From Candidatus Multivorans sp. (GTDB lineage: Bacteria > Acidobacteriota > Thermoanaerobaculia > Multivoradales > Multivoraceae), in NCBI GenBank assembly GCA_965262355.1, contig OZ253534.1:3425794-3489793 (forward strand): a stretch of 64,000 bases of DNA, read 5' to 3'. The notes beneath the pieces are model-generated. The model had not been told where the DNA came from and made no database searches. It saw only the letters and a program-made list of their open reading frames with translations. The position numbers were made by a program, and so were the translations under genes. Below are positions 20,006 through 58,667 of this stretch, one piece after another; positions within the stretch are counted from its first letter, which is position 1, and every line of letters starts with the position of its first letter.

Positions 20006-20137
20006 GGCATTTGGGAAGCTGCTGAGTGGGCTGAACAGCGCAGGCTATCCGATCGCGTTCCGGCGACAGGTGGAGGGATTGGGCTGCAGTAAACTCGTCG
20101 GACGCTCGGTGCCAGACCACAGTGAGAGGGATGTAGC

Positions 20138-21532: not shown

Positions 21533-24118
21533 TCACGGCACGGTGCGGCCGGCGAGGATGCCGAGGTACTCCTGCACCTGCTGCCGGCTTGACCCGGCGC
21601 CGAGCGCGGCCATCAGGAAGACCCGGGCCTTGAGTCCGTCGAGGTCCTCTCCGCCCACGACTCCCATTTCGTCGAAGGGCGGATAGAGCACCACCCTTCC
21701 CGCTCCCGTGCGTGTTGTGAAGAGGACCACGACATCGTTCTCGATCGCCTCTCGCAGGGCCGGCGCCACGCGCTCCGGCACATTGCCGCGTCCGAACACC
21801 TCCACGACCAGACCCTTGGCGCCATTCTCGACGGCCGCGCGCACCAGATGGCCGTCGCTGCCCGCGACGAGCCGCAACAGGTCGACGTTGGGCTCGATCC
21901 TCGCGGCCGGAATCAGCAGGCGCCTCGTCGGCCGCCGTTTCAGATAGAAGACGCCGTCGTCGAAGCTGCCGAGCGGTCCGACACCCGGCGACACGAAAGC
22001 CTCTACCGCCACCGAGTGGGTCTTGCGCACGTCACGGGCCGCGTGGACTTCGTCGTTCAGGGTCACCACGACGCCGAGCTGTCTGGCCGCTGGTGAGCCG
22101 GCGAGAGTGACGGCGTTGAGCAGATTGCGTGGGCCGTCGGTATCCGTTCGCTGCGGAGAGCGTTGCGCCGCGGCGAACACGACCGGGCGTGGGTCCGCCA
22201 CCAGGAGATCGACGAGGAACGCGGTTTCCTCGAGTGAATCCGTGCCGTGGGTGATCACGACCCCGCTGAGCGAGGCGTCGCGCGCGAAGAGCTCGTTCAC
22301 GCGCTGCGCCAGCAAGAACTGGATCTCGGGCGTCATCTGCGAGCTGCCGATGGCGCTCCAGTCCTCGCCGGTCACCGTCGCTACCCGAGCCAGCTCGGGA
22401 ATCGCCTCGACGAGGTTGGATGCGGTCAGCTTCCCGTCCGTCGCGCTGGCGATCGTGCCGCCGGTCGCCACCACATGGACCTTCGGCAGTTCGCCGCTTC
22501 GGCGCCCCGAACCTCCTCGCCGTAGCGGGCGTCCCGGCCGGGCGCCCGTGACCTCACCGTCGAGCAGAACGAAGACACCGCCCACCAGCACATGCCGCGC
22601 GCCCTTCGCGTAGTGATGCGGGTCGCCGAATGCGGCGGGGTCGTCGATCTCGTCGACCGCGAAGACGGCAATGTCGGCCACGCCGCCTATCCCCAGACGA
22701 CCACGATCCGCGAGGCCGAGCCGATCCGCGGGAAGCGACGACATCTTGCGGATCGCCTCCGGCAGGGACAACACGCCTTCATCGCGCGCATAGTGGCCGA
22801 GGACGCGGGCGAAGGTTCCGTAGTTGCGTGGATGCGGAACTCCCTCGCCGGGCGCCACGATGCCGCCATCGGACGCGATCATCGTCTGCGGGTGCCGCAT
22901 GATCCTGATGACGTCCTGCTCCTCCATCGCGTGGAAGATGCCGCTGAAACCGCCCTTCTCCTGCAGCTCGAGCGCGAGTTCCGCGGCCGCTTCCAGGTCA
23001 TCCCGGGCCTCGCCGCGCCGGGCCAGAATGTCGGCCAGACTCATTCCGTTGAGCGACGGATCCCACTCGCACTGGGAAACGACGACGTTCTTCGGATGTC
23101 CCCCACCGCGGTCGACGCGCAGGGCCTCGACGACGCCGGCTTTGATTCGCGCTCTCGTGTCCGGGTCGCGGAGGCGCGCCAGTAGATCTTCGGGCTCGCC
23201 TTCCAGACTCCAGGCGGGGAAGAGGATCGAGAGCGAGGTGCTCGACGCGGTGTAGGGGTACTGGTCGATCGTCACGTCGACGCCCCTCGCCCGTGCCGCG
23301 TCGACGAGGGCCAGGGACTGTTCGCTGGCGCCCCACATCGGGGCGCCAACCACTTTGTGATGTGTCAACTGCGTCGGCAAGCCGCCCTCCTCGCCGATGC
23401 GGATGGTCTCCTCGACCGCGGCGAGGAGTTCGAGGCCTTCCTCGCGCATGTGACTGACGTGGAAACCGCCAAAACGTGCAGCGACCCGCGCGAGGGCGAT
23501 GACCTCTTCGGTCGTCGCGTAGGCGCCGGGCACGTACTTGAGCCCGGTCGACAGGCCGAACGCCCCTTCGCTCATCGCCTGTTCGACGAGCCGCTTCATC
23601 GCCTCGAGCTCGTCTTCCGTCGGCGCCCTGTCCTCGTTGCCCATCACCTGACCGCGGATCGTGCCGTGGCCGACGGTTAGCCCGAAGTTGATCGCCGGCG
23701 GATGGAGGTCGATGCGCGCCAGGAAGTCGCCAATCGGAAGCGGAGAACTCCCATCCGGCCCCTCGATGACCGTCGTTACGCCCTGGCGGACGTAGTTCTC
23801 GGCCAGCGGATGCCGGAACACGCCCCGCACGGCGTGGCTGTGGATGTCGATGAAACCTGGAGTGACCGCGAGTCCGCTCACGTCGAGGCGTTCGGCGGCT
23901 CGTGCGCCTTCGAGGTCACCGATCGCCGTGATCCGGTCACCCACGATGCCGACATCGGCGCGGTAGGGCTCGCCGCCACGGCCGTCGTAGATCGTCCCGC
24001 CTTCGAGCACCAGGTGATAGCGCGACCCGTCGGCGGCCTGACCGAGGCAGACAGCGGCGGATGACAGGGCGAGGACGGCAGCGGCGGCGCCCCCGGTCGC
24101 CGGCCAGTTCCGACTCAA
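21533..24118 (-). CDS. Fusion protein: N-acyl-D-amino-acid deacylase (D-aminoacylase, amidohydrolase family) plus L-asparaginase, with signal peptide
   Basis: N-terminal half: GGTIYDGRGGEPYRADVGIVGDRITAIGDL…PGFIDIHSH. C-terminal ~330 aa: KVHVVATGGTIAS…VVITHGTDSLEETAFLVDLL (asparaginase TGGTIAG and HGTDT motifs). Start assigned to a TTG giving MSRNWPATGGAAAAVLALSSAAVCLGQA. The upstream ~114 codons of the ORF are Arg-rich junk. Confidence 0.7.
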   Translation of the reverse strand: MSRNWPATGGAAAAVLALSSAAVCLGQAADGSRYHLVLEGGTIYDGRGGEPYRADVGIVGDRITAIGDLEGARAAERLDVSGLAVTPGFIDIHSHAVRGVFRHPLAENYVRQGVTTVIEGPDGSSPLPIGDFLARIDLHPPAINFGLTVGHGTIRGQVMGNEDRAPTEDELEAMKRLVEQAMSEGAFGLSTGLKYVPGAYATTEEVIALARVAARFGGFHVSHMREEGLELLAAVEETIRIGEEGGLPTQLTHHKVVGAPMWGASEQSLALVDAARARGVDVTIDQYPYTASSTSLSILFPAWSLEGEPEDLLARLRDPDTRARIKAGVVEALRVDRGGGHPKNVVVSQCEWDPSLNGMSLADILARRGEARDDLEAAAELALELQEKGGFSGIFHAMEEQDVIRIMRHPQTMIASDGGIVAPGEGVPHPRNYGTFARVLGHYARDEGVLSLPEAIRKMSSLPADRLGLADRGRLGIGGVADIAVFAVDEIDDPAAFGDPHHYAKGARHVLVGGVFVLLDGEVTGARPGRPLRRGGSGRRSGELPKVHVVATGGTIASATDGKLTASNLVEAIPELARVATVTGEDWSAIGSSQMTPEIQFLLAQRVNELFARDASLSGVVITHGTDSLEETAFLVDLLVADPRPVVFAAAQRSPQRTDTDGPRNLLNAVTLAGSPAARQLGVVVTLNDEVHAARDVRKTHSVAVEAFVSPGVGPLGSFDDGVFYLKRRPTRRLLIPAARIEPNVDLLRLVAGSDGHLVRAAVENGAKGLVVEVFGRGNVPERVAPALREAIENDVVVLFTTRTGAGRVVLYPPFDEMGVVGGEDLDGLKARVFLMAALGAGSSRQQVQEYLGILAGRTVP

Positions 24119-25317
24119 CGGTGCTCCAGGAGGAGCGCGAACAGATCGTCGCGCACGCGGTTGCGCAAGCCGCCGCCCTCGTCCTGGTTGAACTGCACGG
24201 CCACCGCAATCCCCGAGTCCCGGTGGTAGTACATCGTGGAGCGCCAACCGGGGAACCAGCCGCCATGGCCCACGAGTTCGCCGTGCGGGGTATCGGCACA
24301 GTAGACGCCGAGCCCGTAGGTCGCCTCGGCGTCTTCCCCCCGGTAGCCGGAGCCCAGCATCTCTTCCAGGTACGGCCCGTCGAGCGCTCGCCCCTCGTAG
24401 AGGATCTTGGCCCAGCGTGCCAGGTCCCGGGAGTTCGAGACGTAGCCGCCGCCTGTCCACTCCGTGCGCGGGTTGAAGGCGGTTAGGCCGTCCTCAGCCG
24501 TCTTGGCCGGTAGGGCGAAGGCATTGTCTTCGCCAAGGTGACCGGGGGCGAGATCGGTGAACGAGCGGCCCAGTTGTTCCTCCGTGCGAGGAAGGTCGTG
24601 ACGGTCGAGGACGCGGCGCCGCGCCTCTTCGTAGTAGTTGCCGCCGGATGCCGCTTCCAGGATGAGGCCCGCAACGATGAACCCGGTGTCGGTGTAGGAG
24701 TACCCCTCGCCGGGCGCGAAGAGAGGCTCCTTGTCGAGGACGAACTGAACCAGCTCGCGTGGTTCGAAGTAGAAGTCCGGGTCGGCGGCCGGACCGCCCC
24801 TTCGGGCCCTGGCTTCCCGGCGCCAGGCGTCGTCGAACACGTGGTCGGTCAAACCGCTCGAGTGACTGAGCAGATGGCGAAGGGTCATCGTCTCGTGGTT
24901 GGGAAGCCGTGTCCACCAGGGCTCGTTCCCGAGCCAGCGGGAGGCCAGGTCATCGAGGCCGAGGAGGCCTTCGTTCGCCATGCTGAGCGCGGTGGCCGCG
25001 GCAAACGTCTTGCCGATGCTGCCGGCCGGCATGCGGTGCTCGGGTGTCATCAACACGCCGCGCTCCGGGTCGGCATAGCCGGTCGCGGCAGAGCCTTCGC
25101 TGCCATCCGGAAGGACGAACGCGGCGGTTCCCCCGATGAATCCCAGCTCGTCGCGCAGTTCATCAAGTCGCTCTTGGAACAGCTCCTCGATCTCCGTCGC
25201 CACCACTGCCTCGCTCCCTTCAGTGCCTGCGATCTCGGAGCCCGTGGGCTCGGTGCACGCCGCGCCCAGGGCAAGCATCGGGAGAAGGGTGAGCCCTGTG
25301 ACCTGCCGGCGAGCCAC
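24115..25317 (-). CDS. Serine hydrolase, beta-lactamase/S12 family (D-aminopeptidase / DD-peptidase-like), probable lipoprotein
   Basis: …HRMPAGSIGKTFAAATAL (S-x-x-K)…YSYTDTGF… Start uncertain (25278-25317). LLPMLALGAAC is lipobox-like. Confidence 0.75.
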   Translation of the reverse strand: MARRQVTGLTLLPMLALGAACTEPTGSEIAGTEGSEAVVATEIEELFQERLDELRDELGFIGGTAAFVLPDGSEGSAATGYADPERGVLMTPEHRMPAGSIGKTFAAATALSMANEGLLGLDDLASRWLGNEPWWTRLPNHETMTLRHLLSHSSGLTDHVFDDAWRREARARRGGPAADPDFYFEPRELVQFVLDKEPLFAPGEGYSYTDTGFIVAGLILEAASGGNYYEEARRRVLDRHDLPRTEEQLGRSFTDLAPGHLGEDNAFALPAKTAEDGLTAFNPRTEWTGGGYVSNSRDLARWAKILYEGRALDGPYLEEMLGSGYRGEDAEATYGLGVYCADTPHGELVGHGGWFPGWRSTMYYHRDSGIAVAVQFNQDEGGGLRNRVRDDLFALLLEHR

Positions 25318-47314: not shown

Positions 47315-48070
47315 GTGAAGAAGATGTGGAAGTCCGTCATTGCTGTGCTTGCCCTCGTACCCGCCACCGTGTGGGCTGCAACGGCGCAACAGCAGGACGC
47401 CGAGTTCGTCGCCATATTCGATGGCGAGATGCTGGATGGCTGGCATGCGGTACCGGCCGACTCCATTACGGACTGGTCCGTCGAAGACGGCATGATCGTC
47501 GGACAGGGCAGCGTGGACCGGCTCGTGTACCTCGTCTACGACGACGTCGAGCTGACCGATTTCGAGTTGGAAGTGAGCTACCGCTTTCCCGGGAACGGCA
47601 ATAGTGGAATTCAGATCCACGCCGTGAAGGACCTGAGCGGCAAGCGTCCGTTCGTGGGCTACCACGCGGATCTGGGTCACCTGGGCATTGGACCGCAGGT
47701 GCTCGGCGCATGGGACTTCCACTTCGCCACGCGCGAAGAGTACGCCTGTTTTCGCGGAACGAGCCTCGTGATCGATCCGGACGGAACTACGCACACCAGC
47801 GACGTCGAAGATGGCGTGACGGAAAGCGACATCAATCGTCGTGGCTGGAACGAGGTCCGCGTTGTCGCCAGGGGACGCCACTACCAGTTCTTCATCAACG
47901 GGAAGCTCGCCTCGGAGTTCACCGACAACGCGAAAGAAGAACGTTTTGACAAGGGCGCAATCGGCCTGCAGATTCACGATGCGGGGATGCGCGTGGAGTT
48001 CAGGGACCTGCGGCTGAAGAAGACCGCTTACGGACTCCATCCGGACGTTTCCGTACACGAAGGAGCATGA
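47315..48070 (+). CDS. DUF1080 (3-keto-disaccharide hydrolase-like) domain protein, secreted
   Basis: Signal peptide, then …FDGEMLDGWH…GNSGIQIH…GWNEVRVVARGRHYQFFINGKL…GLQIHD… typical of DUF1080. Confidence 0.75.
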   Translation: MKKMWKSVIAVLALVPATVWAATAQQQDAEFVAIFDGEMLDGWHAVPADSITDWSVEDGMIVGQGSVDRLVYLVYDDVELTDFELEVSYRFPGNGNSGIQIHAVKDLSGKRPFVGYHADLGHLGIGPQVLGAWDFHFATREEYACFRGTSLVIDPDGTTHTSDVEDGVTESDINRRGWNEVRVVARGRHYQFFINGKLASEFTDNAKEERFDKGAIGLQIHDAGMRVEFRDLRLKKTAYGLHPDVSVHEGA

Positions 48071-48981
48071 CGATGACTAGAGTGCATTCGAGCCGTCGGA
48101 CTGCAGCAGTATTCCTGGCGTTCGTGATTTGCCTGACTGGCGCACACGCTCAGCCCGGCGCCGACGAAGGCCCGAGCTTCGGCCAGATCAATCCGGCGCA
48201 GATGGCTCGGATGCTGAATCCTGCCGAGGACGGGCCCTTCTACATGATCAACCTGATCCAGTTCCGGGAGAAGGCGGTCTATCCCGACGGGCGCGAGACC
48301 GACCTCACCGGCCAGGAAGCCAACAATCTCTACAGGCCGATCGACATCCTGGAGGAGATCGGCGCCGAGGTCGTCTTCACGGCCCAGGTCGAGAAGATGC
48401 GGCTGGGCGACGGCACGCAGTGGGACCAGGTGGCCATCGCTCGTTATCCGAGTCGCCGGGCGTTCCTGCAGATGACGCAACGACCGGACTTTCGGGCCCG
48501 ATCGATCCACAAGGACGCCGGCGTCGGTAAGTCGATCGCGATGGTGTCGCATCTCGTTGATCTCCCGACGCCCGAAGGCTTCACTCCGCCGCAACCGGCT
48601 TATCCGGCGACTGCCGACGACCGCCCCTTCGAGATGATCCACGTGCTTCGCTATCGCGCCGCGGCTCGGTACGAGGAAGGCTCCACCGAGCCGGCGATCT
48701 CCGGCCGCGAGGCGATGGAGAAGTACGGCGCTGCCGCCGGCTCGGTCGCCGGGCCGATGGGCGTCTACCCCACGGCGTGGTTCAAGATCGAAGGAGTCTT
48801 CATCGGCGACGGTCGGCCGTGGGACGAGGTGCGGATCAACCACTTCCCGAGCCACGCGACCCTGGCGAAGCACGCGGAGAGCGAAGTTCGGGCGGAAGCT
48901 CAGCGTCACCGGGCCGCAGCCCTCGAGGACAGGTACGCGATCCAGGCGCGCCCGCTGATCAACCGGCTCGGCAGGAAGTAG
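48067..48981 (+). CDS. Secreted protein with tandem DUF1330-like (dimeric alpha/beta-barrel) domains
   Basis: Two internal repeats: FYMINLIQFREKAVYPDGRETDLTGQEANNLY…VAIARYPSRRAFLQM and FEMIHVLRYRAAARYEEGSTEPAISGREAMEKY…VRINHFPSHATLAKH. Paralog at 52791-53801. Confidence 0.55.
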   Translation: MTMTRVHSSRRTAAVFLAFVICLTGAHAQPGADEGPSFGQINPAQMARMLNPAEDGPFYMINLIQFREKAVYPDGRETDLTGQEANNLYRPIDILEEIGAEVVFTAQVEKMRLGDGTQWDQVAIARYPSRRAFLQMTQRPDFRARSIHKDAGVGKSIAMVSHLVDLPTPEGFTPPQPAYPATADDRPFEMIHVLRYRAAARYEEGSTEPAISGREAMEKYGAAAGSVAGPMGVYPTAWFKIEGVFIGDGRPWDEVRINHFPSHATLAKHAESEVRAEAQRHRAAALEDRYAIQARPLINRLGRK

Positions 48982-49024
48982 CGTCCGGATCGATCAACGC
49001 GGAGAAGCCTGCCGAGGAGGAAAG

Positions 49025-49924
49025 CTAAGCGACCGGCCGGTCACCCACGATCGAGACCCGCTCGCCGAAGCGCGACTGCGGGTAGTAGTCCCACACGGCA
49101 TGATGCTGCGTGCAGCGGTTGTCCCAGAGGGTGAGTGTGTTGGGCTCCCAGCGCACGCGACAGGTCAGTGAGACCGTGGTGGCAATGTGCCTGAAGAGCA
49201 TGTCGAGCAGACCCCGGCTCTCCCATCGACGCAGACCGCGGATGTGCGAGGTGAAGCCGCTGTTGACGAACAGGGCCTTGCGGCCCGTCTCGGGATGGCG
49301 GACCACCACCGGGTGCTCGGTCTTCGGGTACTGCTTTCCATCGGGAGCGGCGTAGCCGTACTTTCCGATGTAGGGCAGGGCACCGTCATGGACCGCCACC
49401 AGACCTTCGAGAAACTGCTGCATCCGCTCCGATAGCGTCTCGTAAGCGCGGTACATGTCGGCGAATAGTGTGTCGCCTCCCGAGCCGCACTCGGGAATCT
49501 CCTTGATGTAGAGCATCGACGCCATCGGCGGTTGCTCGTCGCACGACACGTCGGTGTGCCAGCCGTCGCCCGCCGTGTACCTGGACTTCTGCGTGGTCTT
49601 GACGACAAGGATTTCCGGGTCGTGCCCGCCCTTGTACTCGGAGCTCTTGTGCAGCGGGTGGACGTGCAGCGGGCCGAAGGACTGGCCGAAGTCCTTGTGC
49701 TGCTCGCGGGTGAGTTCCTGGTCACGGAAGACCAGCACCTGCCAGTCCAGCCAGGCTTGCCTGATGTCGTCCTTCTGGGACTGGGAGAGCGGCTGGGACA
49801 GGTCGACTCCCTCGATCTCCGCGCCGATATGGGGCGTCAGAGGTCGGATTTCGATGGGGGCTGCGGCGGGCGTCCAGTCAGGGCGCGTTTCGGAAGCGGC
49901 TTGTACGGTCGTGGTGCCGGTCAT
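49025..49924 (-). CDS. TauD/TfdA-family Fe(II)/2-oxoglutarate dioxygenase (copy 1)
   Basis: …HIGAEIEGVDLSQPLS…GWHTDVSCDE…(H-x-D)…HHAVWDYYPQSR… Near-identical paralog at 55259-56158. Confidence 0.8.
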   Translation of the reverse strand: MTGTTTVQAASETRPDWTPAAAPIEIRPLTPHIGAEIEGVDLSQPLSQSQKDDIRQAWLDWQVLVFRDQELTREQHKDFGQSFGPLHVHPLHKSSEYKGGHDPEILVVKTTQKSRYTAGDGWHTDVSCDEQPPMASMLYIKEIPECGSGGDTLFADMYRAYETLSERMQQFLEGLVAVHDGALPYIGKYGYAAPDGKQYPKTEHPVVVRHPETGRKALFVNSGFTSHIRGLRRWESRGLLDMLFRHIATTVSLTCRVRWEPNTLTLWDNRCTQHHAVWDYYPQSRFGERVSIVGDRPVA

Positions 49925-49961
49925 CCTGTCATACGCTCCGCTGTCCACTAATGGAGGAAGG

Positions 49962-50723
49962 ATGATGAAACCAGTTTGCTTTGTCATGGGCGCGGGCGCC
50001 GGGATCGGCGGTACCGCCGGCAAGAGGTTTGCTCGCGAGGGGTACCACGCGGTTCTCTGTCGCCGGAGCGACGAAGACGGGCTGAACGCTCTGGTCGCCG
50101 GCATTCACGAGGAGGGAGGGGATGCGTCCGGCTTTCTCCTGAACGCCGTCAAGGAGAACGCCATCGAGGATCAGATTGCCCAGGTGGAGGAGGAGATCGG
50201 GCCGATCGAAGTGATGATCTACAACCTCGGCGCCCAGATCGGCGATCGGGCGCTCGCCGATACCAGCTACAAGGCCTTCGAGCTCGGCTGGCGCATGGCC
50301 ACGTTCGGCCTCTTCCGGACAGCCTCCGCGGTCTGCCCCCGCATGGCTGAGCGTGGCCATGGAACGCTGATCGTTACCTCAGCCACAGCCGCGGCGCGCG
50401 GCAATGCAGGACAGCACTCCCACGCGGCCGCGATGGGGGGACGCCGCATGCTCTGCCAGACGCTGAACGCCGAGTTCGCCGCAAAGGGAATTCACGTGGC
50501 TCATGTGCTCGTGGATGGATCGGTCGATGCACCGGACACGCTAGGCAAGATGCTTGGGGCAGAGCGGTTCGAGGCTCTCCGGAACACGAAGGGAGCGGCC
50601 GACGGCCTCATCCTGCCCGAGCAGGTGGCGGAGACCTACGTCCATCTCGTGCAACAGCATCGGTCCACCTGGACCTTCGAGTTGGACGTGCGTGCGTACT
50701 CCGACAAGGCCTGGTGGAACTGA
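49962..50723 (+). CDS. SDR-family oxidoreductase, divergent from TauD copy 1
   Basis: MMKPVCFVMGAGAGIGGTAGKRFAREGYHAVLCRRS…. Confidence 0.8.
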   Translation: MMKPVCFVMGAGAGIGGTAGKRFAREGYHAVLCRRSDEDGLNALVAGIHEEGGDASGFLLNAVKENAIEDQIAQVEEEIGPIEVMIYNLGAQIGDRALADTSYKAFELGWRMATFGLFRTASAVCPRMAERGHGTLIVTSATAAARGNAGQHSHAAAMGGRRMLCQTLNAEFAAKGIHVAHVLVDGSVDAPDTLGKMLGAERFEALRNTKGAADGLILPEQVAETYVHLVQQHRSTWTFELDVRAYSDKAWWN

Positions 50724-50841
50724 CGTACCGACGGGTGCTGTTCCCGTCGCGCTGTACAGTGTGCGAGTGGACATCAAGGTAGATACGCGAGGCCGTGAGG
50801 CCGGCCCCCCCGGCTACTTCGACGACGCCGACGGCTTCCTC

Positions 50842-52689
50842 ATGCCGTTGGCTCCCAACACGAGATCCCGCCGCATTCCCCTCGGTGACTTTCCGACCGG
50901 TCCCGAGGTCGGCACGCGACTACCCGAGGTGGTCGCGATCGACCAATACGGTCGCTCGGTCGACCTGCATGCGGACCGCCGTGGCCAACCGGCGGTCCTG
51001 GTCTTCTCCCGATCAGCGGTGTGGTGACCCCCCTGTCGAACCCAGCTGGTCGAGCTGGAGCGAGGAATGGCCGCTTTCGATGCCGCCGGGGTCAAGCTCT
51101 ACACCCTGACCTATGACGAGGTCGATGCGCTCGCCGACTACTCCAATGCCATGGGGGTCACTTTCACCATGCTGTCGGACCCGAACAGCGAGGTGATTCG
51201 AGCGTTCGGGATCCTCAACACGCTCATCCCGCCGGACGAGCACCCCTGGTACGGGATCCCCTTTCCCGGGGCCTACGCGATCGATGCCGACGGCATCATC
51301 GTCGCCAAGTTCTTCGACCGCAACTTTGGTGCGAGATTCGGACCCGAGCAGCTCCTCAACGCTGCTCTCGGCCGGAGGTTCGAGGTGGAGCCCGCGGCAA
51401 GCCCGGCGGAGCAGGTGAGTGTCGACGTGATCCTCGACGCCGACCGGCTGCTCTCGGGCGTCATTCACGAGATCGTCGCGACCTTCCGGGTACCGGAAGG
51501 GCAGCATCTCTACGGCGAGCCGGTACCGGACGGCCTGGTGGCTGCCACGATCGAAGTCGACGACGCTCCCGGCATCATCAGCCGCACTCTGGTCGCACCG
51601 CCTACTTCCAGGTTGACCCTCGCCGGGTCCGGCGACACCCTCGAAGTCTACGAGGGCGACGTGGTGCTGCGGCTACCGATCGCACAAAACGGCAGAGCCA
51701 TGCAGAAGGCCGACGGCAAGCGCTATGTCGACATCAGCGGCAGGGTCCGTTGGCAAGCGTGCGACGACGTGGAGTGCGGTCTACCTCGGTCGCAGAGCTT
51801 CGACTTCCGGGTCGAAGCCGGTTTCCCGGTCCTCCCGGACATGGGCCCAGGGGTGGGACGAGTACCGGAAATGAACGGTGCTGCCCACTTCAAGAAGATG
51901 ATGGAGCGGAAGTCCATGTGGTCCATGCTCAACTGGGGCACGGTGATGGGGATCGACGCCTTCTGCGACGCTCTGGAGTTCCCGCTGCTTCCGCTCCCGG
52001 AGGTGCGGGCCGGTGAACCTACCCGCTACCGACCCGCGGAGGCCGTCGACGATGGCGCCTGGGTTCCCATGATCCCCAACGATGGCGAGGGTGAGAACGA
52101 AGCCGACGTCTACGATCGGCTTCCCGCTTCCCGTCGCTTCGTGCCGAACGTGATTCGGGCCATGTCCCTCGTGCCCGATGCCCTGCGTAATCTGCTCGAC
52201 CTTCTGTTTCCCTTCTACCTGGCGGGTCACAACCCAAAGTCTGGCAGCCTGGACCGCAGGCAGACGGAGTTGGTCGCCGGCCGGTTATCCGCCCTCAACG
52301 AGTGCTTCTACTGAACGACCGCACACGCACAGATGCTCCGGGCGAGCAGTCAGGGCAGCGATGTGGACTTCGAGGCGATCACTAGGGGTGCCAGCGATCA
52401 AGTGACCGGGGTGGCGTATGGCGCAGAGTTGATCGCCTACGCGGATGCGGTAGTTGCCCGGTCACCGGAGGCGACACAGGCCCGCGACGCCGTCCAGAAG
52501 TCGTTGGGAGATGCAGCGGTCGTCGACGTCGCCGCCGTCATCGCGAACTTTCAGCGCATGGTTCGCATCGCCGACGGAATCGGGATCCCCCTCGGCGAAG
52601 AGCTCGATCTTCGCTCGGCGGACCTTCGACACGAGATCAGGATCAACGAATTCGCCAGTGCCGCAGGGCGCAGGATCAGCGCGACGTGA
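50842..52689 (+). CDS. Candidate two-selenocysteine redox protein: TlpA-like thioredoxin-fold domain (W-U-P-P-C), DsbD-alpha-like domain, AhpD-like domain (C-F-Y-U-x3-H). TGA codons at 51025-51027 and 52312-52314 are read as Sec
   Basis: Three consecutive ORFs (50554-51027, 51067-52314, 52333-52689) share one frame and are separated only by TGA codons. TGA 1 replaces the first Cys of …AVLVFSRSAVW[TGA]PPCRTQL… TGA 2 replaces the second Cys of …RLSALNECFY[TGA]TTAHAQ… (AhpD CxxCxxxH). Domain homology is continuous across both TGAs. Hairpins sit 15-20 nt downstream of each TGA. The middle domain carries a DsbD-alpha-like WQACDDVECGLP motif. Start codon uncertain (ATG 50842 or GTG 50761/50767). 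Confidence 0.6.
51042..51058 (+). ncRNA. Putative bacterial SECIS-like hairpin after the first in-frame UGA
   Basis: CCAGC-UGGUCGA-GCUGG (5-bp stem, G-containing 7-nt loop), starting ~15 nt 3' of the UGA at 51025-51027. Confidence 0.35.
52334..52348 (+). ncRNA. Putative bacterial SECIS-like hairpin after the second in-frame UGA
   Basis: UGCUC-CGGGC-GAGCA (5-6-bp stem, GGG apical loop), starting ~20 nt 3' of the UGA at 52312-52314. Confidence 0.35.
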
Positions 52690-52790
52690 GCTGCGGCCCT
52701 CCGCGATCTCGTCGCTACACCCCCCCACCACGCGGTCACCGGTCGGCGGCGGGTGCCAGCTCACGATCCATCACCAAGAGGAGAATCATC

Positions 52791-53801
52791 ATGACTGACG
52801 ACCGCTCCAGCGTTATCAACTTTCTTTCGATCTTTGGGATGTTCATCGTGGCGATCGGGACCGCGGTGTTCTCTCCGCCCGTGTTTGCGCAGTCGTCTCA
52901 GCAGGTCTTCGAAGCTAGCGACGCCGACAGCGACGGCGCGATCAGCAAGGCCCAAACTCCCGATCCCAGCTTCGGGACCCTGAACCCGAACGCGGCAAGT
53001 TTCATGATCGTTCCGCCGGATCAGGACGGAATGTTGTACATCCTCAACCTCATGAAGTACCGGGACAAGGCCGAATATCCCGACGGGCGCGAGACGAACC
53101 TGACGGGCGAAGAAGCCGACAGGCTGTACAACCCGTTACCGGAAGTTGAGAAAGTGGGCGGCGGGCTAGTTTACGCCGGCAGCGTCGAAGCGCAGCTCGT
53201 AGGCAAAGATCCGACGTGGGATCGGGTCGGAATCGTCATGTATCCGAGTCGGGCGAAGATCGCGCAAATGAGGGCGAGCGCGGGTTTCCAAGAGACCGTC
53301 GTTCACAAAGGCCCAAGCCTCGCCGCGTCCCAGATCATCGTCACGATACCCGAAGAAGATTGGACGTATTCGGATAAGCCTCCGGTCACCGCGGCCGACG
53401 TTCCCCATCCGGCGTCCGCCGACGACCCGTCCTTTACTCTCTTTCATCTGGTGAAGTATCGCGCCGTCGCCGAGTACCCCGAAGGCAGCAGCGAACCCCA
53501 ACGGAGTGGACGCGAAGCGATGGACGTGTTTTGGAAATCTCTGGAGGGAAGTCTTCACGAGGCCGGCGTGGAGCCGATGCTCAAAGCGGAAGTCGCCGGT
53601 GTTCTGGTCGGCGACGGGCGAGATTGGGACGACTATCGCATCCTGAGGTTCCCGAGCCGTCGCGCCTACGAGGCCGTACTCGCGAGAATTGAGTCGAGCG
53701 ATTCTGCCATTCACTTTGCCGCTGCCGTCGAGGACGAGTACCGTTTGCAACTGGTGGACCTGATGGACAGGACGGCCAATCCCCCAACGCCTCCGAAGTA
53801 G
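52791..53801 (+). CDS. Secreted protein with tandem DUF1330-like domains (paralog of 48067-48981)
   Basis: N-terminal TM/signal (FLSIFGMFIVAIGTAVFS), then LYILNLMKYRDKAEYPDGRETNLTGEEADRLY…VMYPSRAKIAQM and FTLFHLVKYRAVAEYPEGSSEPQRSGREAMDVF…ILRFPSRRAYEAV. Confidence 0.55.
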   Translation: MTDDRSSVINFLSIFGMFIVAIGTAVFSPPVFAQSSQQVFEASDADSDGAISKAQTPDPSFGTLNPNAASFMIVPPDQDGMLYILNLMKYRDKAEYPDGRETNLTGEEADRLYNPLPEVEKVGGGLVYAGSVEAQLVGKDPTWDRVGIVMYPSRAKIAQMRASAGFQETVVHKGPSLAASQIIVTIPEEDWTYSDKPPVTAADVPHPASADDPSFTLFHLVKYRAVAEYPEGSSEPQRSGREAMDVFWKSLEGSLHEAGVEPMLKAEVAGVLVGDGRDWDDYRILRFPSRRAYEAVLARIESSDSAIHFAAAVEDEYRLQLVDLMDRTANPPTPPK

Positions 53802-53840
53802 GTGCGGGTTCTGTACCGGCCTGACGCCGAGAGACTCAGC

Positions 53841-53935
53841 CGGCGGGCGCGATGGCGTTCCCAACGGGATACGACCCAGCGCTCCGAGCCGTAGGCGAGG
53901 CGCGCCGACCGAATCCCGCTGGGGCCAGCATCGTG
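53841..53935 (-). repeat. Degenerate tandem copy of the tRNA-Glu 3' region (pseudo-tRNA / att-like direct repeat)
   Basis: gcgggcgcgatggcgttcccaacgggatacgaccc (53843-) versus gcaggcgcgatggtgtccccaacgggattcgaaccc at the tRNA 3' end (53939-), ~30/36 identical with a ~96-bp period. It does not fold into a complete tRNA. Confidence 0.5.
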
Positions 53936-53948
53936 CCGGCAGGCGCGA

Positions 53949-54025
53949 TGGTGTCCCCAACGGGATTCGAACCCGTGTTGCCAGCTTGAAAGGCTGGAGT
54001 CCTGACCTGGCTAGACGATGGGGAC
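53949..54025 (-). tRNA. tRNA-Glu: tRNA-Glu (anticodon UUC)
   Basis: Reverse complement folds as acceptor GTCCCCA/TGGGGAC, D-arm GTCT/GGAC, anticodon stem CCAGC/GCTGG with loop CTTTCAA (anticodon TTC), T-arm ACGGG-TTCGAAT-CCCGT, discriminator A plus CCA. Coordinates ±2. Confidence 0.8.
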
Positions 54026-54201
54026 GCGGATTCGGGCCGCGGCTTCGGTGCCGACCGCTGTCGAGCGGCGGAGTATACCGGCAGCGGCCGAAGCCGTGTT
54101 GCAGGAGTCTGACCCGGACATCGGTCTGGGCCGTTTCCTGTTTGGTTGCGGCCGCTGTTGACGATCGGCATACAATCGGCGACAATCAGCTCCGATCAAG
54201 T

Positions 54202-54477
54202 ATGAGCCGTTGTCTCTGGGATCCTGCGAAGAACAGACGCTTGATCGCGGAGCGGGGCGTCAGTTTCGAGGAGGTGGCGACACTGATCGAATCGGGTGCG
54301 CTGGTCGACATCTACGACCATCCGGATCCGAAACGGCCACACCAGCGGATTGCCGTGATCGAGATCGGGGAGTACGCCTACCTGGTTCCTTACGTGGAGA
54401 CGGAAGCAGGCGACTTCTTCCTCAAGACGATCATCCCGAGCCGGAAGGCGACGAAGAAGTACCTGAGGGCGAGGTGA
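54202..54477 (+). CDS. brnT: BrnT-family (DUF497) toxin
   Basis: MSRCLWDPAKNRRLIAERGVSFEEVATLIESGALVDIYDHPDPKRPHQRIAVIEIGEYAYLVPYVETEAGDFFLKTIIPSRKATKKY. Confidence 0.7.
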   Translation: MSRCLWDPAKNRRLIAERGVSFEEVATLIESGALVDIYDHPDPKRPHQRIAVIEIGEYAYLVPYVETEAGDFFLKTIIPSRKATKKYLRAR

Positions 54478-54483
54478 CGAGCC

Positions 54484-54774
54484 ATGACCGAACGCACGAC
54501 GAAGCCCGATTCAGCAGCACTCGACCCTGAGGAGCGCGAGATCCTGAGAGCCTACGAGCAAGGACGTCTCCGAAGAGCCTCGGGCTCTTCTCGGGACGTC
54601 GCCAGGCTGGAGTCCGCGGCCCGCGAGACGCTTCGAAAGGACAAGCGAATCAACATCCGCCTGCCGAGTCACGACCTGGTGGAGATCAAGCGGTTGGCGG
54701 CCCGCGAAGGAGTGCCGTACCAGACTCTCATTTCCAGCATCCTTCACAAGTACGCCACGGGCGAGCTTGGTTGA
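54484..54774 (+). CDS. brnA: BrnA-type antitoxin
   Basis: …RKDKRINIRLPSHDLVEIKRLAAREGVPYQTLISSILHKYATGEL (BrnA C-terminal signature). Confidence 0.7.
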   Translation: MTERTTKPDSAALDPEEREILRAYEQGRLRRASGSSRDVARLESAARETLRKDKRINIRLPSHDLVEIKRLAAREGVPYQTLISSILHKYATGELG

Positions 54775-54787
54775 GCCGCGACGAGTC

Positions 54788-55250
54788 CTAAGCCCTCCGT
54801 CGCAGCAACTCTGCCGAATCCGGTGCGCCGCACTCCACCGCCCACTCCAGGGGTGTGGCGTCGTAAGCGGCGTCGACGATCGACGGGTCGGCGCCGAGAT
54901 CGAGCAGGCAGGCGGCGGCTTCCACCTTGTCGCTGTAACAGGCCCAGAGCAGCGGCGTGCCCCGGAACGGATTCGCGTTCACGTTGGCGCCCAGCTCGAC
55001 GAGAGCTTCGATTGAGCCGCACTGGTTGTTGCGGGCGGCCCAGGACAAGGCCTCGTCGAGCACTTCCTGGCGGGAGAGCGTCCGCTTCCACGACGGGAAG
55101 AAAACCGGGGCGTAGAAGCCGAGCCCCTCGCGGCCCGGCAAGCCAGGTCGAGGAGCGTGCGTCCCTCCTCGTCCCGGTCCGTGAGAACGGCGGGCGAACG
55201 GGCGAGGATGCGGCCGAGCGCCTTGAGATCGCCCTTGGTCGCTGCCTTGG
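54788..55250 (-). pseudogene. Ankyrin-repeat protein gene, N-terminally truncated by the duplicated TauD segment and internally frameshifted (~55100)
   Basis: Ankyrin repeats in two frames (…DEEGRTLLDLACRAA… / …GTPLLWACYSDKVEAAACLLDLGADPSIVDAAYDATPLEWAVECGAPDSAELL). The reading loses homology exactly where the duplicated segment begins (~55252). Confidence 0.55.
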
Positions 55251-55258
55251 CGGTCCTG

Positions 55259-56158
55259 TTAAGCGACCGGCCGATCACCCACGATCGAGACCCGCTCGCC
55301 GAAGCGCGACTGCGGGTAGTAGTCCCACACGGCATGATGCTGCGTGCAGCGGTTGTCCCAGAGGGTGAGCGTGTTGGGCTCCCAGCGCACGCGACAGGTC
55401 AGTGAGACCGTGGTGGCAATGTGCCTGAAGAGCATGTCGAGTAGACCCCGGCTCTCCCATCGTCGCAGACCGCGGATGTGCGAGGTGAAGCCGCTGTTGA
55501 CGAACAGGGCCTTGCGGCCCGTCTCGGGATGGCGGACCACCACCGGGTGCTCGGTCTTCGGGTACGCCTTTCCATCGGGAGCCGCGTAGCCGTACTTGCC
55601 GATGTAGGGCAGCGCACCGTCATGCACCGCCACCAGACCTTCGAGAAACTGCTGCATCCGCTCCGATAGCGTCTCGTAAGCGCGGTACATGTCGGCGAAT
55701 AGTGTGTCGCCTCCCGAGCCGCACTCGGGAATCTCCTTGATGTAGAGCATCGACGCCATCGGCGGCTTCTCGTCGCACGACACGTCGGTGTGCCAGCCGT
55801 CGCCCGCCGTGTACCTGGACTTCTGGGTGGTCTTGACGACGAGGATCTCCGGGTCGTGCCCGCCCTTGTACTCGGAACTCTTGTGCAGCGGGTGGACGTG
55901 CAGCGGGCCGAAGGACCGGCCGAAGTCCTTGTGCTGCTCGCGGGTGAGCTCCTGGTTACGAAAAACCAGCACCTGCCAGTCCAGCCAGGCCCGCATGATG
56001 TCGTCCTTCTGCGACTGGGAGAGCGGCTGGGACAGGTCGACTCCCTCGATCTCCGCGCCGATATGAGGGGTCAGAGGTCGGATCTCGATGGGGGCTGTGG
56101 TGGGCGTCCAATCAGGGCGCGATTCGGAAGCGGCTTGCACGGTCATGATGCCGGTCAT
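55259..56158 (-). CDS. TauD/TfdA-family dioxygenase (copy 2, ~97% aa identity to copy 1)
   Basis: 299-aa product differing from copy 1 at only ~8 positions (e.g. MTGIMTV vs MTGTTTV; IMRAWL vs IRQAWL). Confidence 0.8.
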   Translation of the reverse strand: MTGIMTVQAASESRPDWTPTTAPIEIRPLTPHIGAEIEGVDLSQPLSQSQKDDIMRAWLDWQVLVFRNQELTREQHKDFGRSFGPLHVHPLHKSSEYKGGHDPEILVVKTTQKSRYTAGDGWHTDVSCDEKPPMASMLYIKEIPECGSGGDTLFADMYRAYETLSERMQQFLEGLVAVHDGALPYIGKYGYAAPDGKAYPKTEHPVVVRHPETGRKALFVNSGFTSHIRGLRRWESRGLLDMLFRHIATTVSLTCRVRWEPNTLTLWDNRCTQHHAVWDYYPQSRFGERVSIVGDRPVA

Positions 56159-56208
56159 CCTGTCACACGCTCCGTCGTTGTGGCCGAACTGAAAAGGACG
56201 CGCGTTGT

Positions 56209-56646
56209 CTACTTACGCGGGGAGTAGATGACCCAGATCTTCGTGTAGCCGTCCGTTTCGAAGACTCCGGTCCACTCTTTCGGGACCGTCACTGCCTCCC
56301 CGGCGTTGATCACGAGCTCCGTTCCGTCAGATGACGTCAGAGTGACGCCGCCCTCGAGGAAGTACATGAACTCGTCGACACCGTACGGCTGGGTGATCTC
56401 GATCCGTGTCTGCCCAGACTTATACATGCCGGAAGAGAAGCTCTTGTCGCTCGAGACCAGCGACGTGGCCGTCTGCGTCACGTGCCCGTCGGCGTGGGTC
56501 TTCTCGACCACGTCCGGGCGCTCGAAGATCTTGCCGGCTAGATCTGGCTTGCTGATCTTCGCCGGCCGAACGGTTTCATCACTTGCAGCCATCATGGAAC
56601 TCCCAAGGACTGTTGCACAGAGGATGATCAAGACTCTTCTCTTCAT
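56209..56646 (-). CDS. Cupin-domain protein, secreted
   Basis: Signal peptide MKRRVLIILCATVLGSSMMAAS, then …GVDEFMYFLEGGVTLTSSDGTELVINAGEAVTVPKEWTGVFETDGYTKIWVIY (cupin beta-barrel). Confidence 0.65.
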   Translation of the reverse strand: MKRRVLIILCATVLGSSMMAASDETVRPAKISKPDLAGKIFERPDVVEKTHADGHVTQTATSLVSSDKSFSSGMYKSGQTRIEITQPYGVDEFMYFLEGGVTLTSSDGTELVINAGEAVTVPKEWTGVFETDGYTKIWVIYSPRK

Positions 56647-58667
56647 GGGTGGACTCCTGGGTGAGGTGATCGCCCGAGTGGACGGGCTCGGTCGAGCGAC
56701 AGGCCAAACGCTACGAACTCTGCCGGGGACTCCTTGCCGCCGATCGCGACGACGATGAACTGGCGACCATTGTGTAAGTAGGTCATCGGCGCACCGGTGG
56801 TGCCGGATGGCAGCTCCGTCTCCCACACCACCTCGCCCGTGGCCTTGTCGTAAGCGCGGAACTTCTTGCCCCAGTAGCGGCCTTCTTCCCCCTGGATGCC
56901 GGGGATGGCATCGCTGCCTTCACCGATGAACAGCAGCGTCTTCGTCACTAGCGGTGCCGGTCGCCCAGCGACCCCCAGGGGTGGCACGTCGAGGCCATCG
57001 AGCAGGGGATGGTCTCGAGGCCCATCGCCGTTGGCCGCCATCCACACGTGCTCGCCGCGATGCAGATCGATTGCAGTGATCCGACCATAGGGTGGCTTCA
57101 CAATCGGGAGTCCGTCGAGGGTCGGTACATCGGGACCATCGTAGGCGATCACGTAGCCGAGCGTCGCGTCGCTGTCTTCCGGCTGTTTCAAGGAGTACAC
57201 GCCCGGCCAGGTGTGGGACACGGCGTAGTAGACGCCGGTCTCGGGATCGAAGGCGCCGGTGTGCCAGTTCCCTGTTCCCCACGCTCCCGGATTCGTCAGA
57301 GTGCCAATCTTCCCTTGCTCGTCGTCCATCAGGCCGGGCGGCGTGAAGATCGGCCCGAGACGGAAGGGCTTGACGAGCTCCAGGGCCCGTGCCCGGAGCT
57401 CCGGTGTGAAGTCGATCAGGTCGTCCTCCACGAATCCCTGTCGGTCGAAGGGCGGCGGCTTCGTCGGGAATGGCTGGGTCGGCGACAGTCGCTCCCCGGG
57501 GACCCGTGAGCCAGGCACGGCCCTCTCCTCGATCGGCCACACCGGCTCCCCGGTACGGCGATCGAAGACGTAGAGGAAGCCGGTCTTCGAGGGCTGCATG
57601 ACGGCGTCGATACGCCTCCCATCGACCGTGATCTCACCGAGGGTCGCCGGACCGGCCGTGTCCCACTCCCAGACGTCGTGGTGCACCATCTGAAAGTGCC
57701 AGATTCGCTCGCCCGTCTTGGCGTTCAGTGCCACGAGTGAGTTGGAGTACAGGTTGTCGCCGGGCCGGTGGCCACCGTAGTACGCCGCGGTTGGGGCCGA
57801 GAGCTGGACGTAGACGTAGCCGAGCTCCTCGTCGGCCGATAGGCAGCACCACGACCCGAGGTCACCCGAGTACTCCCACGAGCCGTCGCCCCAGGCCTCA
57901 TTGCCCGACTCGCCCGGCCGCGGCACGACGTGGAACGTCCACAGCCGGCGGCCCGTGCGGACGTCGTAGCCGCGCACATCCTCCGGCGTCGCCTCCTTCT
58001 TGTTGCCGCTGTCGCCGGCGCCTCCGGTGAATCCGGCCACCACGACGACGTCGCCCACGACGAGCGGCCCGGCAGTCCAGGTGAAATCGCCGGCAAGCGG
58101 TCCCGAGAGGCGGAGGCTGACGCGTCCCTGGTCGCCGAAGTCGCCGTCGAACTCGCCACTTGAGGCGTCGACCGAGTACAGGTAGTTGCCGCGTGCGAGG
58201 AACACTCGTTGCTGCTGGCCGCCGGTCCAGAGGTCGACGCCTCGTGGGCTCAAGCCGCGTGCCTCTTCGATCGTCGGCTCGAACGGCGCCTGAGACCACA
58301 AGGTCTTGCCGCTCGCCGGGTCGACGGCGCGCAGCAGGCCAACGAGGTTGGTCAGGAAAAGGCGACCTTCGACCATGATGGGCGTCGATCGCAGGTTGTT
58401 GCCCGGACGCAGCCCGGGGAACTCCTCCTTGAGCTCCGGTTCCAGACCCGGCCGTCGCCAGACGATGCGTAGATCGCCGACGTTCGAGGCGTCAATCTGG
58501 TCGAGCGGCGAGTAGCGCTTGAAGGTGCGGTCGCCGCCGAAGTACGGCCACTCGCCTTCCTGCGCCGCCAAGGTCGACCCCAGCACCAGCACACCGGCCC
58601 ACGCGACCAAGGTTCGGCCCCTGGCGCGAGGCCGAACATCTGAGTTCGCGATCACCTTCCGCACCAC
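56643..58667 (-). CDS. PQQ-dependent dehydrogenase (quinoprotein alcohol/sugar dehydrogenase family, 8-bladed propeller)
   Basis: …EWPYFGGDRTFKRYSPLDQI…RIVWRRPG… W-motif propeller repeats throughout. 674 aa with signal peptide. Confidence 0.8.
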   Translation of the reverse strand: MVRKVIANSDVRPRARGRTLVAWAGVLVLGSTLAAQEGEWPYFGGDRTFKRYSPLDQIDASNVGDLRIVWRRPGLEPELKEEFPGLRPGNNLRSTPIMVEGRLFLTNLVGLLRAVDPASGKTLWSQAPFEPTIEEARGLSPRGVDLWTGGQQQRVFLARGNYLYSVDASSGEFDGDFGDQGRVSLRLSGPLAGDFTWTAGPLVVGDVVVVAGFTGGAGDSGNKKEATPEDVRGYDVRTGRRLWTFHVVPRPGESGNEAWGDGSWEYSGDLGSWCCLSADEELGYVYVQLSAPTAAYYGGHRPGDNLYSNSLVALNAKTGERIWHFQMVHHDVWEWDTAGPATLGEITVDGRRIDAVMQPSKTGFLYVFDRRTGEPVWPIEERAVPGSRVPGERLSPTQPFPTKPPPFDRQGFVEDDLIDFTPELRARALELVKPFRLGPIFTPPGLMDDEQGKIGTLTNPGAWGTGNWHTGAFDPETGVYYAVSHTWPGVYSLKQPEDSDATLGYVIAYDGPDVPTLDGLPIVKPPYGRITAIDLHRGEHVWMAANGDGPRDHPLLDGLDVPPLGVAGRPAPLVTKTLLFIGEGSDAIPGIQGEEGRYWGKKFRAYDKATGEVVWETELPSGTTGAPMTYLHNGRQFIVVAIGGKESPAEFVAFGLSLDRARPLGRSPHPGVHP

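Follow-up and report, generated by a model that had tools for sequence, protein, structure and literature searches.

The subject of this analysis is a reading frame in a stretch of 64,000 nucleotides (nt) of Candidatus Multivorans sp. (Acidobacteriota, Thermoanaerobaculia; GenBank assembly GCA_965262355.1, contig OZ253534.1, positions 3,425,794 to 3,489,793 of the forward strand), here termed the window, in which three open reading frames (ORFs) of the same frame are separated only by TGA codons. Comparison with related loci indicates that this frame is quite probably a recent chimera of two adjacent selenoprotein genes, which were joined by a deletion of ~390 bp and whose AhpD-like part may lack retained activity. 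The upstream gene (gene 1) codes for a peroxiredoxin-like (Prx-like) domain followed by a DsbD-alpha-like domain and the downstream one (gene 2) for an AhpD-related protein of the CFYUT family (NF041238). Each contributes one of the two in-frame TGAs (TGA1 and TGA2; UGA1 and UGA2 in the transcript), both of which are most likely selenocysteine (Sec) codons.

The frame opens with an ATG at 50842 and comprises 616 codons, with stops only at codons 62, 491, and 616, the last of which is the TGA at 52687-52689. The internal TGAs stand in the contexts ...VLVFSRSAVW-TGA-PPCRTQL... and ...LNECFY-TGA-TTAHAQ... of the translation. Domain profile searches run with Cys placed at both TGAs retrieved Pfam AhpC-TSA over residues 23-155 (85 bits) and Redoxin over the same Prx-like domain (50 bits), DsbD_N (PF11412) over residues 209-321 (33.6 bits; cut-off, 25), and CMD over residues 467-502 (26.4 bits; cut-off, 23). 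The original prediction had described a single frame that, as read, would give a protein with two Sec residues, in which domain homology continues through both TGAs and the middle region is DsbD-alpha-like; these points hold, as the AhpC-TSA match extends across TGA1, the CMD match extends across TGA2, and the DsbD_N domain keeps its two conserved Cys. Only three TGAs on both strands of the 64 kb are flanked on each side by 60 stop-free codons with coding-like GC content at third codon positions, and since two of these are TGA1 and TGA2, the pattern is more than chance. The recoding is local, because TGA works as a normal stop both for the chimeric gene itself and for the upstream SDR gene (50721-50723); on these grounds, a variant genetic code that reads TGA as sense was rejected. 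A scan of 50400-53000 for promoters and terminators found none.

The origin of the frame emerges from the related loci, 12 of which were recovered by a genome scan. The fused 615-codon ORF is present in two further Ca. Multivorans sp. genomes (L001 and L002), where it is 99% identical to that of the window, and the same junction is thus seen in three assemblies (the window, OZ242167.1, and OZ251997.1). In four others (L003, L004, L005, and L010; 91-94% DNA identity), the two genes are adjacent and co-oriented: gene 1, of 358 amino acids (aa), ends with ...KKMIERRK-TAG, and 16-25 nt further on gene 2 starts with MTRAIF... in a different frame, being 365-372 aa long and having a TGA of its own. 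Gene 1 is found with no gene 2 behind it in L006-L009 and L011. Its copies in L006-L008 (Multivorans) and in L011, an Acidimicrobiales metagenome-assembled genome (MAG), end at the same place as in the two-gene genomes, and the L009 copy is frameshifted near its 3' end. Outside the genus, no gene 1 homolog lies within 3-4 kb of gene 2 in any of 86 loci (L013-L098), in all of which gene 2 is stand-alone. Because gene 1 ends alike elsewhere and the gene 2 loci outside the genus stand alone, the fused architecture is derived rather than ancestral. The fused clade has lost the TAG of gene 1, the spacer of 16-25 nt, and the first ~125 codons of gene 2, including a CxxC motif, and an unrelated filler sequence occupies the place of the lost segment.

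On the basis of these observations, we propose that an ancestor in the Ca. Multivorans lineage carried the two selenoprotein genes side by side, the first coding for a cytoplasmic-looking Prx-like thiol:disulfide oxidoreductase (U-x-x-C) with a DsbD-alpha-like C-x4-C domain and the second for a full-length AhpD-related CFYUT protein. A deletion of ~390 bp, patched by the filler, would have removed the stop of gene 1, the spacer, and the N-lobe of gene 2, with the frame being kept by luck. As each UGA would retain its own Sec insertion sequence (SECIS) just downstream, a ribosome supplied with SelB and Sec-tRNA should be able to read both. In the predicted product of 615 aa, Sec62 would be the nucleophile exposed by the thioredoxin-fold domain, and Sec491 would occupy the nucleophile position of AhpD; its synthesis would need two successive SelB-dependent recodings, whose yields would be expected to multiply down. 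A peptide spanning ...FKKMMERKSMWSMLNWGTVMGIDAF... or lying C terminal to residue 491 would be the sign of this full-length two-Sec product.

That the fusion is an artefact of assembly or sequencing, such as a collapsed region in long-read MAGs, is highly improbable: the three fused assemblies do seem to originate from long-read MAG projects of one type, but the identical junction and the same 25-nt filler recur in three separately assembled chromosomes that differ elsewhere in the gene at 13 codons, and both exact ORF pieces are on record, each from two contigs. The fused Trx/DsbD-alpha/AhpD architecture described by the original prediction is seen here not as a conserved design but as a recent, lineage-restricted product of the deletion. 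A word-indexed search with the full 615-aa query returned one match and is uninformative on spread, and the middle ORF was used for an exhaustive search of 1.84 billion representatives. Its 1559 matches include gene-2-type proteins besides the gene 1 family, and among the best 150 of them there is neither the fusion nor any protein with both halves. Besides the 415-aa form of the window, the listed members of the 90% cluster of the middle ORF are 283, 268, or 148 aa long, mostly unfused proteins of 283 aa. Among the loci and matches compared, the fusion is confined to the window, L001, and L002 and does not recur in independent lineages, as would be expected of an established multi-Sec fusion family.

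The position of TGA1 on a catalytic residue is supported by 12 of 14 aligned full-length homologs, which have W-C-x-x-C opposite the W-TGA-P-P-C of the window (e.g., WCPYC in P0034 and WCGFC in P0001), in accordance with the proposed replacement of the first Cys of a WCxxC motif. TGA1 is kept in the window, L001-L012, and L099-L101, and the surrounding RSAVW-TGA-PPCR is retained in L099-L101, at 41-46% identity, and in two Acidimicrobiales MAGs (L011 and L012). Many database homologs of gene 1 start right after the TGA1 position, as expected of Sec forms cut by gene callers. The domain combines an AhpC-TSA fold with a U-x-x-C opposite C-x-x-C, as in UxxC Prx-like selenoproteins. It lacks the P-x3-T/S-x2-C motif of canonical peroxiredoxins (BCP/PrxQ), and the NCBIfam peroxiredoxin equivalogs score far under their cut-offs. 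In an alignment to the BCP structure 2cx3, the motif Pro faces an Arg, the Thr/Ser faces U62, and the peroxidatic Cys faces C65. The latter two correspondences identify the Prx-like domain as an oxidoreductase of the CxxC type that uses a Prx scaffold, rather than a canonical peroxiredoxin. The structural model of the Cys homolog P0034 is confident as a single unit (pLDDT 93, pTM 0.88), and a Foldseek search of the PDB with it recovered BCP/AhpE peroxiredoxins with a TM score of 0.8, the matches all being single-domain peroxiredoxins.

A DsbD_N domain with its two Cys accompanies the Prx-like domain throughout the gene 1 family. In the window protein, its C-x4-C is formed by Cys307 and Cys312 within the motif WQACDDVECGLP (residues 304-315, nt 51751-51786), and Q310, C312, C317, and P320 are nearly invariant in an alignment of the domain from 36 family members (A4). 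It shares with the alpha domain of DsbD the Q-x-C...C-x-x-P pattern and the pairing with a TlpA/Prx-like thioredoxin fold, the kind of partner that DsbD-alpha reduces (cf. CcmG/TlpA/DsbC). It differs from DsbD in that both partners are on one chain, with no transmembrane segment, no match to the DsbD beta or gamma domain, and no signal peptide; the latter is also absent from P0034 but present in some gene 1 homologs (P0001 and P0143). The two-domain family (gene 1: window 50842-51915) is widespread, with some members in a Sec form and others in a Cys form. On this family, every NCBIfam model stays below its cut-off, and our literature search found no paper explicitly describing a Prx-like plus DsbD_N two-domain selenoprotein. 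Because there is no curated model, the NCBI annotation pipeline PGAP names only a piece of the subfamily, a 148-aa fragment called "protein-disulfide reductase DsbD family protein" (MCY3934058.1). The Prx-like domain itself belongs to a described class: Prx-like thiol:disulfide oxidoreductase selenoproteins (PF00578, UxxC) are the "Prx-like 1" of the Global Ocean Sampling survey (PMC2398784) and appear in Table 1 of PMC13188914, and the description of "Prx-like" selenoproteins (PMC1088965, PMC13188914) fits the gene 1 domain. The window subfamily has in common with this class of Kryukov and Gladyshev the AhpC-TSA thioredoxin fold, a U-x-x-C replacing the T-x-x-C of peroxiredoxins, and the coexistence of Sec and Cys forms, but it is always joined to a C-terminal DsbD_N domain with C-x4-C. 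In one protein from the representative search (P0021, 616 aa), the Prx-like plus DsbD_N unit is duplicated in tandem in one ORF, with the first copy beginning just past a presumed UGA and the second having SxxC in place of CxxC.

Against the NF041238 model (AhpD_rel_CFYUT, "alkylhydroperoxidase-related (seleno)protein"), which represents a curated NCBIfam family that takes its name from the CFYUT motif, the gene 2 part scores 265.5 bits (cut-off, 175). The match is limited to model positions 111-357, whereas the intact gene of L003 matches all 357 positions with 435.8 bits. The window sequence NECFY-TGA-TTAH contains the CFYUT motif, in which the U position is TGA or Cys, and conforms to the E-x11-C-x2-C-x3-H motif of AhpD/CMD proteins with U at the second Cys. 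The E, C, F, and Y of this motif are invariant in alignment A1. Full-length Cys forms are few (P0180, P0181, P0187, and P0192) and all read CFYCTS, and a TGA is found at the CFYU codon in 92 motif matches among the gene 2 loci fetched from genomes and metagenomes. A word-indexed search for the family gave 1248 matches, mostly products of ~245 aa terminating exactly at the TGA. Residues 414-588 align with residues 23-192, almost the entire chain, of the solved AhpD 6k40, and this alignment and the Cys-form homologs place TGA2 on the second Cys, as had been suggested. The position of Sec491 is presumably that of the nucleophile, corresponding to Cys133 in Mycobacterium tuberculosis AhpD (MtAhpD). 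The family was first reported in 2005 (PMC1088965), being "hypothetical protein 1" of the Sargasso Sea selenoproteome, and an NF041238-type selenoprotein is listed in PMC13188914. It is the C-terminal 240 residues of the window protein that give the score above, and the CFYUT motif, the codon at which the TGA sits, and the hairpin GCUC-CGKGN-GAGC are shared with this family, but the N-lobe, whose CxxC (C53 and C56) is nearly invariant in the family and absent from the window copy, is replaced by a foreign N terminus of 357 residues. Sestrin-2 (PDB 5cuf) has 10% sequence identity to the window protein, which, having lost its N-lobe, is no longer of that architecture. Neighbor clustering across L013-L098 revealed no recurrent partner gene beside gene 2, and synteny thus offers no functional hint. 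At one of these loci (L084), a single metagenomic contig carries two NF041238 paralogs in tandem (1170 and 2299), both of which have a TGA and a hairpin of their own.

A covarying hairpin lies downstream of each UGA. The candidate SECIS 1, with a predicted energy of -10.3 kcal/mol, is 100% paired in 11 distinct sequences, with one G-U pair; four of them have G-C instead of C-G as the closing pair, at the cost of an E-to-Q change. The candidate SECIS 2 has the consensus UGCUC-CGKGN-GAGCA at 52334-52348 (5 bp), extendable to 52332-52350 (7 bp). In 78 distinct sequences, 91.8% of its cells are paired, with double changes in four of the seven pairs; none of 500 shuffles attains such values. Within its stem, third-codon positions hardly vary, also at codons whose amino acid differs. 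Both candidates have a conserved G at the second position of the loop; we take this G and the spacing to fit the published bacterial SECIS model and to resemble the G23/U24 loop of Escherichia coli fdhF. A downstream stem-loop, a G in its apical loop, and compensatory changes are found together at both UGAs. The ratio of nonsynonymous to synonymous substitution rates (dN/dS) past both TGAs is 0.12-0.26 relative to unfused relatives, which indicates that the sequence downstream of both is under purifying selection. Given the Cys opposite each UGA in homologs, the covarying hairpins, and the conserved downstream coding sequence, both UGAs are most likely Sec codons.

Several observations weigh against reading the frame as a chimera decoded through two Sec codons. 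Single-sequence folding past each UGA is no better than that of shuffles (z of -0.6 to +0.2), in a test that lacks power at 65% GC and whose minimum-free-energy fold for UGA2 is not the conserved hairpin; both SECIS hairpins are short, and their support is of a comparative kind. The selA, selB, selC, and selD genes are absent from the 64-kb window, whose only tRNA is tRNA-Glu. A search of its six frames for signature motifs of SelA, SelB, and SelD was empty, and Rfam at gathering thresholds recovered the tRNA-Glu only and no SECIS family. With regard to the fusion, a deletion has a chance of about 1/3 of being in frame, so an intact frame is no proof of selection, and the dN/dS values average long branches and are unable to date the deletion. 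The lack of visible Sec machinery would also accord with the TGAs being genuine stops that delimit three independent small genes or a pseudogene, as would the splitting of the region by gene callers, through which the 415-aa and 118-aa pieces are separate database entries. This is very hard to credit, however, as the first ATG past TGA1 (51067) falls in the middle of the AhpC-TSA domain and the first past TGA2 (52333) falls inside the CMD core. Moreover, the TGA is conserved across dozens of divergent loci with no drift among stop codons, and the conserved downstream coding sequence, the covarying hairpins, and the Cys in the place of the stop in homologs likewise argue against it.

Table 1. 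Features of the chimeric gene (window coordinates).
Feature	Position	Strand	Evidence
Chimeric ORF, 615 codons plus stop, with two in-frame TGAs (predicted Sec62 and Sec491)	50842..52689	+	Same architecture in L001, L002
Prx-like/TlpA-like thioredoxin-fold domain, residues 23-155, from ancestral gene 1	50908..51306	+	Pfam AhpC-TSA, Redoxin; P0034 model
UGA1, predicted Sec62, first position of U-P-P-C	51025..51027	+	TGA conserved; WCxxC in Cys homologs
Candidate bacterial SECIS 1: 6-bp stem CCAGCU/AGCUGG, loop GGUCG, loop start 20 nt past UGA	51042..51058	+	
DsbD-alpha-like (DsbD_N) domain, residues 209-321	51466..51804	+	Pfam PF11412
Fusion junction, filler of ~25 nt, CCATGTGGTCCATGCTCAACTGGGG	51914..51938	+	blastn and MAFFT against L003, L004, L005, L010
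Shortened AhpD-related (NF041238, CFYUT) part, residues 367-606; whole AhpD/CMD-type C-lobe kept, N-lobe lost	51940..52659	+	
AhpD proton-relay/redox motif E476-x11-C488-F-Y-U491-x3-H495	52264..52326	+	Read from translation
UGA2, predicted Sec491, second Cys position of C-F-Y-U	52312..52314	+	TGA in gene 2 loci; Cys in homologs
Candidate bacterial SECIS 2: stem (GA)UGCUC/GAGCA(GU), loop CGGGC, loop start 24 nt past UGA	52332..52350	+	

As to what the chimera might do, the gene 1 part would still work as an intramolecular UxxC/C-x4-C module for thiol-selenol exchange, and the AhpD-like C-lobe would be at best an accidental passenger, perhaps active and perhaps not. The AhpD of M. tuberculosis reduces the peroxiredoxin AhpC. 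The window protein resembles this pair and stand-alone AhpD/CMD proteins (6k40 and 1gu9) in its E-x11-C-x2-C/U-x3-H motif, with Sec at the second Cys, and differs in that the Prx-like domain is noncanonical and covalently joined to the AhpD-like one, with no evident lipoamide/DlaT partner. It is conceivable, though rather unlikely, that selection maintains the fusion as a functional enzyme with three centres, the UxxC, the DsbD-alpha-like C-x4-C, and the AhpD-like CxxU, which hand reducing equivalents along one chain, as an AhpC/AhpD-like pair made covalent. Three genomes retain every catalytic residue and both SECIS hairpins, the frame is kept across the junction, and the retained C-lobe amounts to a whole stand-alone AhpD chain (6k40). 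In addition, the dN/dS of the AhpD part (0.19-0.26 relative to unfused relatives) is not above the 0.23-0.39 seen between unfused genomes, and in sister genomes the two genes already lie side by side, probably as one operon. Against this stand the restriction of the fusion to one 99%-identical clade, the missing gene 1 in the flanks of all gene 2 loci outside the genus, and the Multivorans genomes that are entirely devoid of gene 2. Furthermore, the deletion took the nearly invariant CxxC together with one lobe of a tightly packed two-lobe fold, and within the fused clade the AhpD part shows three nonsynonymous and no synonymous differences; the gene 1 part differs there at five synonymous and five nonsynonymous codons. 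As for the intramolecular relay between the halves that the original prediction had put forward, we found no evidence of it, gene 1 and gene 2 never being neighbors outside the genus.

The three nonsynonymous differences might instead reflect an AhpD-like tail that is a decaying remnant, the deletion then being one stage by which gene 2 disappears from an unstable locus; this we regard as possible but doubtful, and no firmer is its corollary that gene 1 now bears a useless, possibly misfolded extension or gives a product stopping at UGA2. A set of three substitutions is too small to be tested, none of the three genomes has a frameshift or a premature stop within the 249 codons, and UGA2, its SECIS, and the E-x11-C-x2-U-x3-H are all intact. 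Moreover, stand-alone CMD/AhpD proteins that consist of a single lobe (~190 aa) occur commonly and fold by themselves. The stronger proposition that the chimera is functional and selected, with the UxxC/DsbD-alpha module having replaced the CxxC N-lobe of a sestrin-like AhpD-related selenoprotein and thereby revealing the two families as redox partners, appears unlikely. Were it true, one natural enzyme would combine two selenols and four thiols on a single chain and serve as a "Rosetta stone" from which Prx-like/DsbD-alpha selenoproteins and those of NF041238 could be recognized as redox partners, in the manner of an AhpC/AhpD-type couple.

Returning to the chimera as the outcome of a deletion, both halves fall into selenoprotein classes that have been described, and the joined gene is a curiosity of evolution and no novel type of enzyme. 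Bacterial selenoproteins with two or three Sec residues that arose by fusion, some with an AhpD module, have already been catalogued (PMC13188914). The window protein resembles these in being one polypeptide with two SECIS-directed UGAs and joined selenoprotein modules, one of them AhpD-like; however, the catalogued ones are curated families with NCBIfam models, whereas the window fusion is a newborn in one near-clonal clade. The locus would be a clean, datable case of the birth of a multi-Sec protein, in which one deletion joins neighboring selenoprotein genes. Because each gene brings its own UGA and in-frame SECIS, nothing further need evolve. Standard annotation breaks such genes into three ORFs. 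If active, the chimera would give the first functional hint for two widespread, uncharacterized marine and soil selenoprotein families; if inert, it would document how an unstable locus is in the course of losing a selenoprotein gene. Either outcome would leave the current understanding of Sec decoding unchanged.

The locus is structurally unstable among Ca. Multivorans genomes. Across L001-L010 (window 47841-56842), some genomes have an intact gene 2, others a truncated one, and others none, and the tRNA-Glu gene (window 53949-54025, minus strand) is downstream of gene 1 in some of these genomes and upstream in others. Two TauD paralogs (49025-50104 and 55259-56158, both on the minus strand) match the same segments of relatives, and these duplicated genes, whose arrangement likewise varies from genome to genome, may drive recombination at the locus. 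Between the chimeric gene and the tRNA-Glu gene lies a 336-aa ORF (window 52791-53801, plus strand) that has a hydrophobic N-terminal stretch and no Pfam match; the ~1.1-kb segment that holds it is missing from the corresponding place in L003. The junction itself creates a GGAG followed 9 nt on by an in-frame ATG at 51916 (51904-51921), which could in principle serve as a separate start for an AhpD-like protein devoid of the N-lobe within the chimeric ORF.

The third TGA with coding-like flanks is at window position 21535 on the minus strand (...GRTVP-TGA-CGSSAGSG...), at the end of a 986-aa ORF (21533-24493); it is probably due to chance, as its downstream part overlaps the antisense of a gene at 20126-21514. 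On a hydrothermal-vent contig (L013; 550-1038 and 1790-2872), a gene 2 that is 73% identical adjoins a TauD gene, as in the window, and a nearby 162-aa ORF belongs to the GRDB family (PF07355), another selenoprotein family, and is probably likewise cut at a UGA.

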